Below are positions 49,744 through 49,892 of a stretch of 64,000 bases of DNA, one piece after another (position 1 is the stretch's first letter; each line of letters begins with the position of its first letter). Position numbers and translations under genes: made by a program. Below the pieces are notes generated by a model, which was not told the origin of the DNA, searched no databases, and saw only the letters and a program-made list of their open reading frames with translations. This DNA is from Perna viridis (Eukaryota), in NCBI GenBank assembly GCA_037379345.1, contig CM074523.1:30705678-30769677 (forward strand), read 5' to 3'.

Positions 49744-49892
49744 ATGCCTGTTAGTAGTTGGAGGTAGCGAAGCCCAGCCTACTGGATACCTGACCGAAAA
49801 ACTCAGAATATGTCCTACTAGCGGCTGGGCTGCTGTGTTGACGCTCTGGCATACTCCCAGACCCCACGTGGATCCGAGAGCGTTTTCCAACT
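49744..49892. repeat. GC-rich structured interspersed repeat, copy 2
   Basis: Colinear with 27200-27348; additional closing stem AGTTGGA/TCCAACT. Confidence 0.85.

Follow-up and report, generated by a model that had tools for sequence, protein, structure and literature searches.

A short Perna viridis retroposon with a predicted HDV-like head, a LINE-like 3' end and a TATA motif upstream of many of its insertions

HDV-like ribozymes that start at C1 and cleave 5' of that base have been documented for the L1Tc and SIDER retroposons of trypanosomatids (PMC4035085, PMC3185411). Bipartite non-autonomous LINEs are described as products of four clades, and I/Nimb is not among the clades listed (PMC5786205). 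For the LP ('LINE promoter') SINEs a parallel with the promoter and ribozyme of Pr77 has been noted, in a section that reports neither a ribozyme fold nor a TATA signature (PMC4758252, section 10). Sequence signatures lying at a distance upstream of the insertion point are also on record: a T stretch at -10 in RTE elements (PMC6007223) and a conserved upstream signature in ingi elements (PMC3820030), each ascribed to the element's own protein. General background was taken from PMC13708176, PMC7761336 and PMC5786205. The open literature, with Repbase and Dfam outside its scope, yielded no published ribozyme-headed bivalve SINE, and an earlier description is possible.

The window analysed here, a stretch of 64,000 nucleotides from the P. 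viridis genome, is of animal type, with a GC content of 35%. An earlier note on this DNA had reported a 145-nt structured element present twice. Both copies (27200-27348 and 49744-49892) and the quoted stem arms were found where they had been placed, as was a CCC-GCAA-GGG hairpin on the minus strand (49720-49729). The unit proved larger and far more numerous than described: it is a dispersed, non-coding repeat of about 260 nt, read as a non-autonomous non-LTR retroposon and lying on the minus strand in the window. At the second site it spans 49664-49926, extending about 80 nt to the left and 35 nt to the right of the interval first given. The features are as follows.

49664-49926, minus strand: full-length but decayed copy of 263 nt with tail type A, delimited by flank comparison; no TSD was found for this copy.
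49837-49926, minus strand: head, element nt 1-90, with a predicted HDV-like fold in the family.
49848, minus strand: putative catalytic C79.
49771-49831, minus strand: second hairpin domain, element nt 96-160, the 'stem 1' of the earlier note.
49720-49729, minus strand: GNRA-tetraloop hairpin, with GCAA here and GUAA in most tail-A copies.
49684-49718, minus strand: 3' stem-loop homologous to the 3' end of an APE-RT-RNase H LINE ('LINE-C', the L213/L300 family).
49664-49683, minus strand: 3' tail of an A-run, a C-run and AATC; most family members end in (ATC)n.
49956-49961, minus strand: target-site TATAAA in host DNA, with its first base 35 nt ahead of element base 1.
27200-27348, minus strand: fragment, element nt ~39-187, carrying private paired changes.

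Mutations have broken P1 and P3 of the predicted head fold in the 49664-49926 copy, which gives no match to the descriptor introduced below. The 27200-27348 fragment is truncated on both sides, with neither the 5' half of the fold nor any of the 3' tail, and adjoins a 49-bp tandem repeat at 27349-27507; further tandem arrays lie at 24117-24843 (39 bp) and 23705-23839 (27 bp). The two copies flank on either side, and on the same strand, a long minus-strand exon with a fibronectin type III domain (PF00041; 40743-41963), and are possibly intronic. Another minus-strand element, at about 10860-11000, ends in a Nimb-type tail with (CAAT)n.

A search of the 723-Mb genome gave 1,232 first-look candidates, and the 40 that were scored were 88-100% identical. 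An internal 15-mer has 317 exact matches genome-wide (reversed control, 0), which at 6-10% divergence implies an estimated 900-1,500 copies, or about 1,000. The main set comprised 82 independent full-length copies (58 with tail A, 24 with tail B), obtained from 124 loci by removing duplicates, copies with an incomplete 5' end and shared flanks. A replicate was taken from 60 new places among the first 100 listed of the 317 exact 15-mer matches; 47 were independent and new, bringing the total to 129 independent insertions, and at 49 of these 60 unselected places the 5' end was intact. Divergence from the family majority averaged 6.2% in the 82 copies, with a CpG excess (8.4% versus 5.1%), as in neutral decay. 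A metagenome scan for a 17-mer gave 71 matches, none extending past 22 nt, and found no diverged homologues. Contigs covering the element come from four runs whose RNA nature is a guess; such contigs carry no strand, start or transcription information.

Target-site duplications of variable length, with a mode of 11-13 bp, were found for 89 of 121 copies: 61 of 82 in the main set (mismatched-pair control, 1/82) and 28 of the 39 replicate copies with a mapped 3' end. The 3' end is ordered as stem-loop, A-run and C-run, then (ATC)n. One locus (L050) holds two element copies at one nick site, and a single TATA-bearing site of a host repeat is occupied by four copies of different subfamilies. That the element is a retroposon is almost certain. 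Seven loci (L043, L047, L048, L103, L108, L117, L370) share one flank, as would be expected if a single copy had been multiplied along with another repeat that carried it. Two loci of about 735 nt that had been considered as LINEs (L093, L104) are actually element copies, each with a ~470-nt element with terminal inverted repeats inserted in hairpin 2. Four-nucleotide deletions between short direct repeats recur at nt 29-32 (23/129) and nt 121-124 (29/129), independently of each other and of subfamily, a pattern suggesting slippage or template switching of the reverse transcriptase.

The element is short, non-coding and dispersed, with variable TSDs and a LINE-derived 3' tail, as SINEs are. 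A classical Pol III SINE with a tRNA, 5S or 7SL head was rejected on the head: ARAGORN found 0 tRNA genes in 4 loci, a B box was absent in the 2 copies checked, and Rfam, a search that the earlier note had proposed, returned no relevant match at gathering and E-value thresholds. The earlier failure to match the element to tRNA, 7SL, 7SK, snRNAs or a ribozyme core was borne out to this extent, and gives way at nt 1-90, where an HDV-like helix order fits. The Rfam blank is weakly informative, because the predicted 5' fold of the L202 LINE, described below, goes undetected by Rfam as well. H/ACA snoRNA, U12, 5S, a tRNA-like 3' end, LTR/PBS, hammerhead and twister were dropped by eye given the true ends and the TSDs. 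Letters in hairpin 2 that resemble a hammerhead have the wrong spacing by eye and are deleted in 29/129 copies. A non-LTR retrozyme, built of tandem 150-400-nt monomers with hammerhead ribozymes between them, was likewise set aside, the copies being mostly single with TSDs and Rfam giving no hammerhead.

The 3' stem-loop of the element is also the end of LINE-C, a decayed LINE family (L213, L207, L214, L223) whose ORF2 contains APE, RT and RNase H domains (Pfam PF14529, PF00078, PF00075). LINE-C is likely I-group, or Nimb-like, a label based on domains and tail resemblance; by eye, a scallop Nimb-type SINE tail in supplement S2 of PMC4758252 has the same outer stem. Tail A has CGGUC/GACCG in this stem, tail B CGACC/GGUCG and LINE-C CGUCC/GGACG, so that the paired change between lineages lies here and not in the stems of the earlier note, in a comparison of three lineages that carries no statistics. 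The LINE-C tail motif adjoins 6 of the 129 element copies, with further cases at L298, L336, L388 and L414, so that the element and LINE-C tails are found inserted in tandem. Three LINE-C 5' ends were seen, none with the element head; the LINE-C tail repeat is (TTAG)n, as against (ATC)n in the element, and the listed LINE-C copies are fragmentary or interrupted, their longest open frame being 503 aa. The true partner may therefore be an unseen sister family. No intact LINE-C or sister family occurred among 150 scored RNase H matches, and no LINE with the element head among 58 inspected of 60 tail-search loci, 60 EN/RT loci, 40 extended LINE regions, 4 exclusion-pattern matches and 60 unselected heads; the partner searches scored top candidates only (including the top EN and RT matches and 20 extended RT loci). 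Very probably the element was moved by LINE-C or by such a sister.

At many loci (L297-L323) the insertion is about 50 nt long and consists of the LINE-C 3' stem-loop only, with TSDs and a 5' end near the stem base; units of 47-50 nt with nearly the same 5' end make up 10 of the 16 LINE-C tail insertions counted below. They could be the product of a strong RT stop or, alternatively, a minimal retroposon that propagates itself. The young Nimb-like L202 family was rejected as the partner because its tail differs and the 5' ends seen lack a TATA at -32. One further RT-bearing element (L203) has a short (GTAA)n tail and is RTE-like by eye.

At the sequence level, the predicted helix order of nt 1-90 fits an HDV-like double pseudoknot starting at C1. 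The predicted helices are P1 (1-7/32-38, with C1-G38), P2 (11-18/83-90), P3 (19-21/29-31), P1.1 (23-24/39-40) and a P4 of 12 bp (46-57/63-74), with an L3 of 7 nt. J4/2 reads C79-A-G-A, so that the putative catalytic C and the conserved A are both present; C79 is kept in 94% of the 82 copies, no higher than its neighbours. A descriptor of our own design, written after seeing the fold, matched at element base 1 in 22/82 and 13/47 copies. On shuffled sequences it matched 0/1000 times at base 1 and 9 times anywhere, and in 822,880 nt of other genome DNA it matched 9 sites, at 6 of which an unrelated Nimb-like LINE begins. The functional strand, previously left undecided, is the minus strand in the window, as given by the TSD geometry, the 3' (ATC)n tail, the LINE-derived 3' stem and the descriptor itself (35/129 versus 0/129 on the opposite strand). 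The earlier note had dismissed an HDV core, probably because its boundaries cut off the 5' half of this fold.

Covariation within the family gives no support for the head stems: in these young, neutrally decaying copies 6 of 2,516 cells were compensated (P1 5/551, P2 1/650, P3 0/203, P1.1 0/162, P4 0/950). Position 7 of P1 is a U-U mismatch in 28 copies and an A-U pair in 32. The deletion at nt 29-32 takes out the 3' strand of P3, and the 23 copies concerned, found in all subfamilies, keep exact 5' ends. The L3 G of the usual U-G reverse wobble is absent in the family; active L1Tc ribozymes are likewise not known to carry it. In R2 ribozymes, loss of this G abolished cleavage or accompanied inactivity (PMC3774820). 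Leaderless ribozymes gave intermediate insertion as R2 templates, and deletion of P2 or mutation of the catalytic C was severely inhibitory, which the authors credit to the fold itself (PMC11331408); by analogy, a protective role for the RNA 5' end is possible for the head fold here. We consider it probable that the head adopts the HDV-like fold, and give catalytic activity of the predicted ribozyme in master copies an even chance. A predicted HDV-like fold at C1 also begins the young Nimb-like LINE at L202:1746-1890 (also L216, L219-L222), a family with a 1,247-aa ORF2 containing APE, RT and RNase H, many intact copies and a (CAAT)n end.

The case first made for a structured RNA had rested on compensatory base changes in two other stems. 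Both paired changes are private to the 27200-27348 fragment (0/82 other copies), and their absence elsewhere means that they are not covariation; the sole genome-wide match to a pattern for the stem-2 double change was the fragment itself. Compensated cells in the 82 copies numbered 2/718 in stem 1 and 2/633 in stem 2, with 35 and 108 broken cells, respectively, 77 of the 108 coming from one position unpaired in the majority. Genome-wide search and multi-copy alignment, put forward as the means of checking, revealed a dispersed family and no covariation in the claimed stems. The inner hairpins exist but pair perfectly in the 27200 copy alone, and the 49744 copy has its 7-bp closing stem by virtue of two changes departing from the family majority. 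Folding z-scores of the 149-nt pieces (plus/minus strand) were -1.38/-3.39 for the 49744 copy and -1.94/-1.62 for the 27200 copy. Stem 2 (nt 44-50 with 80-86) pairs the 5' strand of P4 with J4/2 and P2; competing with P4 and P2, it would be an alternative to the ribozyme fold and not part of it. As a nested fold it is the weaker, at -20.1 kcal/mol; the HDV fold, taken as its two nested halves, gives -24.7 and -29.8. The kind of element proposed, a mobile structured RNA such as a SINE head, ribozyme or retroelement UTR, was nevertheless right in that the retroposon resembles a SINE and its head is not a tRNA; the covariation argument for it fails.

The insertion sites carry a signal of their own. 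A sense TATAWA starts 28-37 nt upstream of base 1, with a mode of 32, at 57 of the 129 independent insertions (36/82 in the main set, control windows 0-4; 21/47 in the replicate, controls 0-2), against a background of 190/8,532 windows (2.2%); 72/129 sites lack it in this interval. Most often the motif starts at -32 relative to base 1 and at -21 relative to the left TSD edge, with an SD of the spacing of 2.4 nt to base 1 and 2.3 nt to the TSD edge (n=45). By orientation, 30 sites were forward-only, 4 reverse-only and 27 both. LINE-C tail insertions were scored relative to the TSD. Of 30 loci, 13 were without a nearby TSD and 1 had a shared flank, leaving 16; TATAWA lay at -26..-16 in 5/16, against 1/16 for the control window, a small count in which two TSD calls (L306, L318) look spurious. 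The short element gave 29/61 in the same TSD-based test (control, 3). No published TATA-box insertion signature of this kind was found in the open literature, with subscription papers, Repbase and Dfam outside its scope; PMC3276498 excludes non-LTR elements. The TATA motif is probably in the main a target signature of the LINE.

Taken together, we favour as fairly probable a non-tRNA-headed retroposon with a LINE-like 3' stem-loop and an HDV-like head, for which an I-group (Nimb-like) LINE likely supplied the copying machinery in trans. Element RNA would be made by RNA polymerase II read-through, and the folded head would cleave 5' of C1, cutting the RNA out of a longer host transcript, or would shield its 5' end. 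The LINE ORF2 would bind the 3' stem-loop, recognise TATA-like DNA about two helical turns upstream and nick about 21 nt downstream of the TATA. Reverse transcription would then be primed on the (ATC)n tail and the RNA copied in, leaving the 11-13-bp TSD.

The TATA motif and the exact 5' ends also bear on a different, rather unlikely reading, promoter capture, by which LINE machinery is tethered to TBP-bound TATA or to open promoter complexes, so that copies land at about +1 of a host core promoter. The element would supply the initiator and the transcription start would set the 5' end, the HDV-like fold being a relic or a shield. TATA-to-start spacing is usually close to 32 nt, and YYANWYY is the initiator motif. 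The first base of the sense-strand TATA lies near this spacing, 32 nt before base 1, and the element's first bases complete YYANWYY in 53/129 sites; base -1, however, is a purine in 68/129, and the 72 sites without TATAWA count against such tethering. Nor is the spacing more constant relative to base 1 than relative to the TSD edge. The constant 5' end of 10/16 LINE-C tail-only units would suit promoter capture, as would the L3 without its usual G, but a DNA-binding preference explains why truncated LINE-C pieces share the signal, and the known distal signatures of RTE (PMC6007223) and ingi (PMC3820030) are ascribed to the element protein. P3-deleted copies keep exact 5' ends, and three of them with tail B share a further change, hinting at a fold-defective master (C47T, 4/23 versus 1/95, uncorrected p=0.005); yet this link would fail correction for hundreds of comparisons, and recurrent slippage would account for a deletion that is present in every subfamily. 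With much the same reserve we raise a LINE/SINE pair homing to Pol II TATA boxes and depositing every copy where transcription starts, in which the promoter-less, ribozyme-headed retroposon and the ~50-nt tail-only unit would borrow the target promoter. Ty3 and TRE5 target Pol III genes, and a TATA-homing pair would be their Pol II counterpart in a non-LTR element.

Less likely again is an internally deleted derivative, like RIME, NARTc or the SIDEs, of one undiscovered LINE carrying both head and tail; the head would contain an internal Pol II promoter. A precedent exists in RTE, Ingi, Vingi and R2, for which bipartite non-autonomous LINEs with 5' ribozymes are known (PMC5786205), a Nimb-like LINE in this genome starts with an HDV-like fold at C1 (L202:1746), and the TSD near 12 bp resembles that of the ingi clade (PMC3820030); against these points, no head-bearing LINE appeared among the top-scored candidates of the partner searches, and the 5' end differs in the LINE whose tail is homologous. 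A conserved ncRNA gene or a DNA hairpin element (MITE, Helitron-derived) under structural selection is very improbable: the two paired changes of the fragment do exist, but they are unique to one copy, the mean divergence is 6.2% with a CpG excess of 8.4% versus 5.1%, and the element has variable-length TSDs, a microsatellite tail, a LINE-homologous 3' end and no terminal inverted repeats.

The favoured trans-copied retroposon adds a SINE-like family in which a predicted self-cleaving RNA replaces the tRNA head and is paired with an I-group-like LINE, and it raises the question whether other 'LINE-promoter' SINE heads are ribozymes. It also presents an insertion signature that is directional, a TATA box lying two helical turns away from the nick. 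Should TBP be what reads the motif, core promoters would be hit preferentially and the element would gain its own route to expression, bearing on the transcription of promoter-less retroposons and on programmable RNA-templated insertion. If it reflects a DNA-binding preference of ORF2, it would be an ordinary addition to the known distal signatures.

Among known systems, the LP SINEs of bivalves and gastropods likewise have a head not derived from a small RNA, TSDs and a tandem-repeat tail (PMC4758252). Their ~70-bp Nimb-17-like head (Fig. S2) is unlike the element head by eye; membership of the LP SINEs (Matetovici 2016) was rejected since no homology to Nimb-17_LMi, I-3_DR or RTE-9_CPB was seen in the head, judged by eye against Fig. 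S2 only. Like the bipartite non-autonomous LINEs (RTE, Vingi, Ingi, R2 SIDEs; PMC5786205), the element joins a 5' ribozyme-type end to a LINE 3' end and has no ORF; it differs in that no single source LINE for its head and tail appeared among the candidates scored. The Nimb-partnered tRNA SINEs of bivalves also have tails homologous to Nimb 3' ends over 35-61 bp (PMC11481361), but with tRNA heads and conserved central domains, whereas the element has no tRNA head. The RTE signature (PMC6007223) is similar in that an A/T-rich motif precedes the TSD by a fixed distance and is common to a SINE and its partner LINE; there it is a T stretch about 10 nt upstream, here TATAWA about 21 nt upstream, with a partner bearing RNase H. 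L1Tc/NARTc, ingi/RIME and SIDER (PMC3185411, PMC4035085, PMC3820030) are similar in being short and non-coding, with an HDV-like 5' fold at C1, a TSD of ~12 bp, a conserved motif upstream of the insertion and a possible competing fold. They differ from the element, in which cleavage is predicted only, the host is an animal, the head matched no LINE among the candidates scored, the tail is I-group-like with (ATC)n, and the upstream motif is a TATA box at -32.
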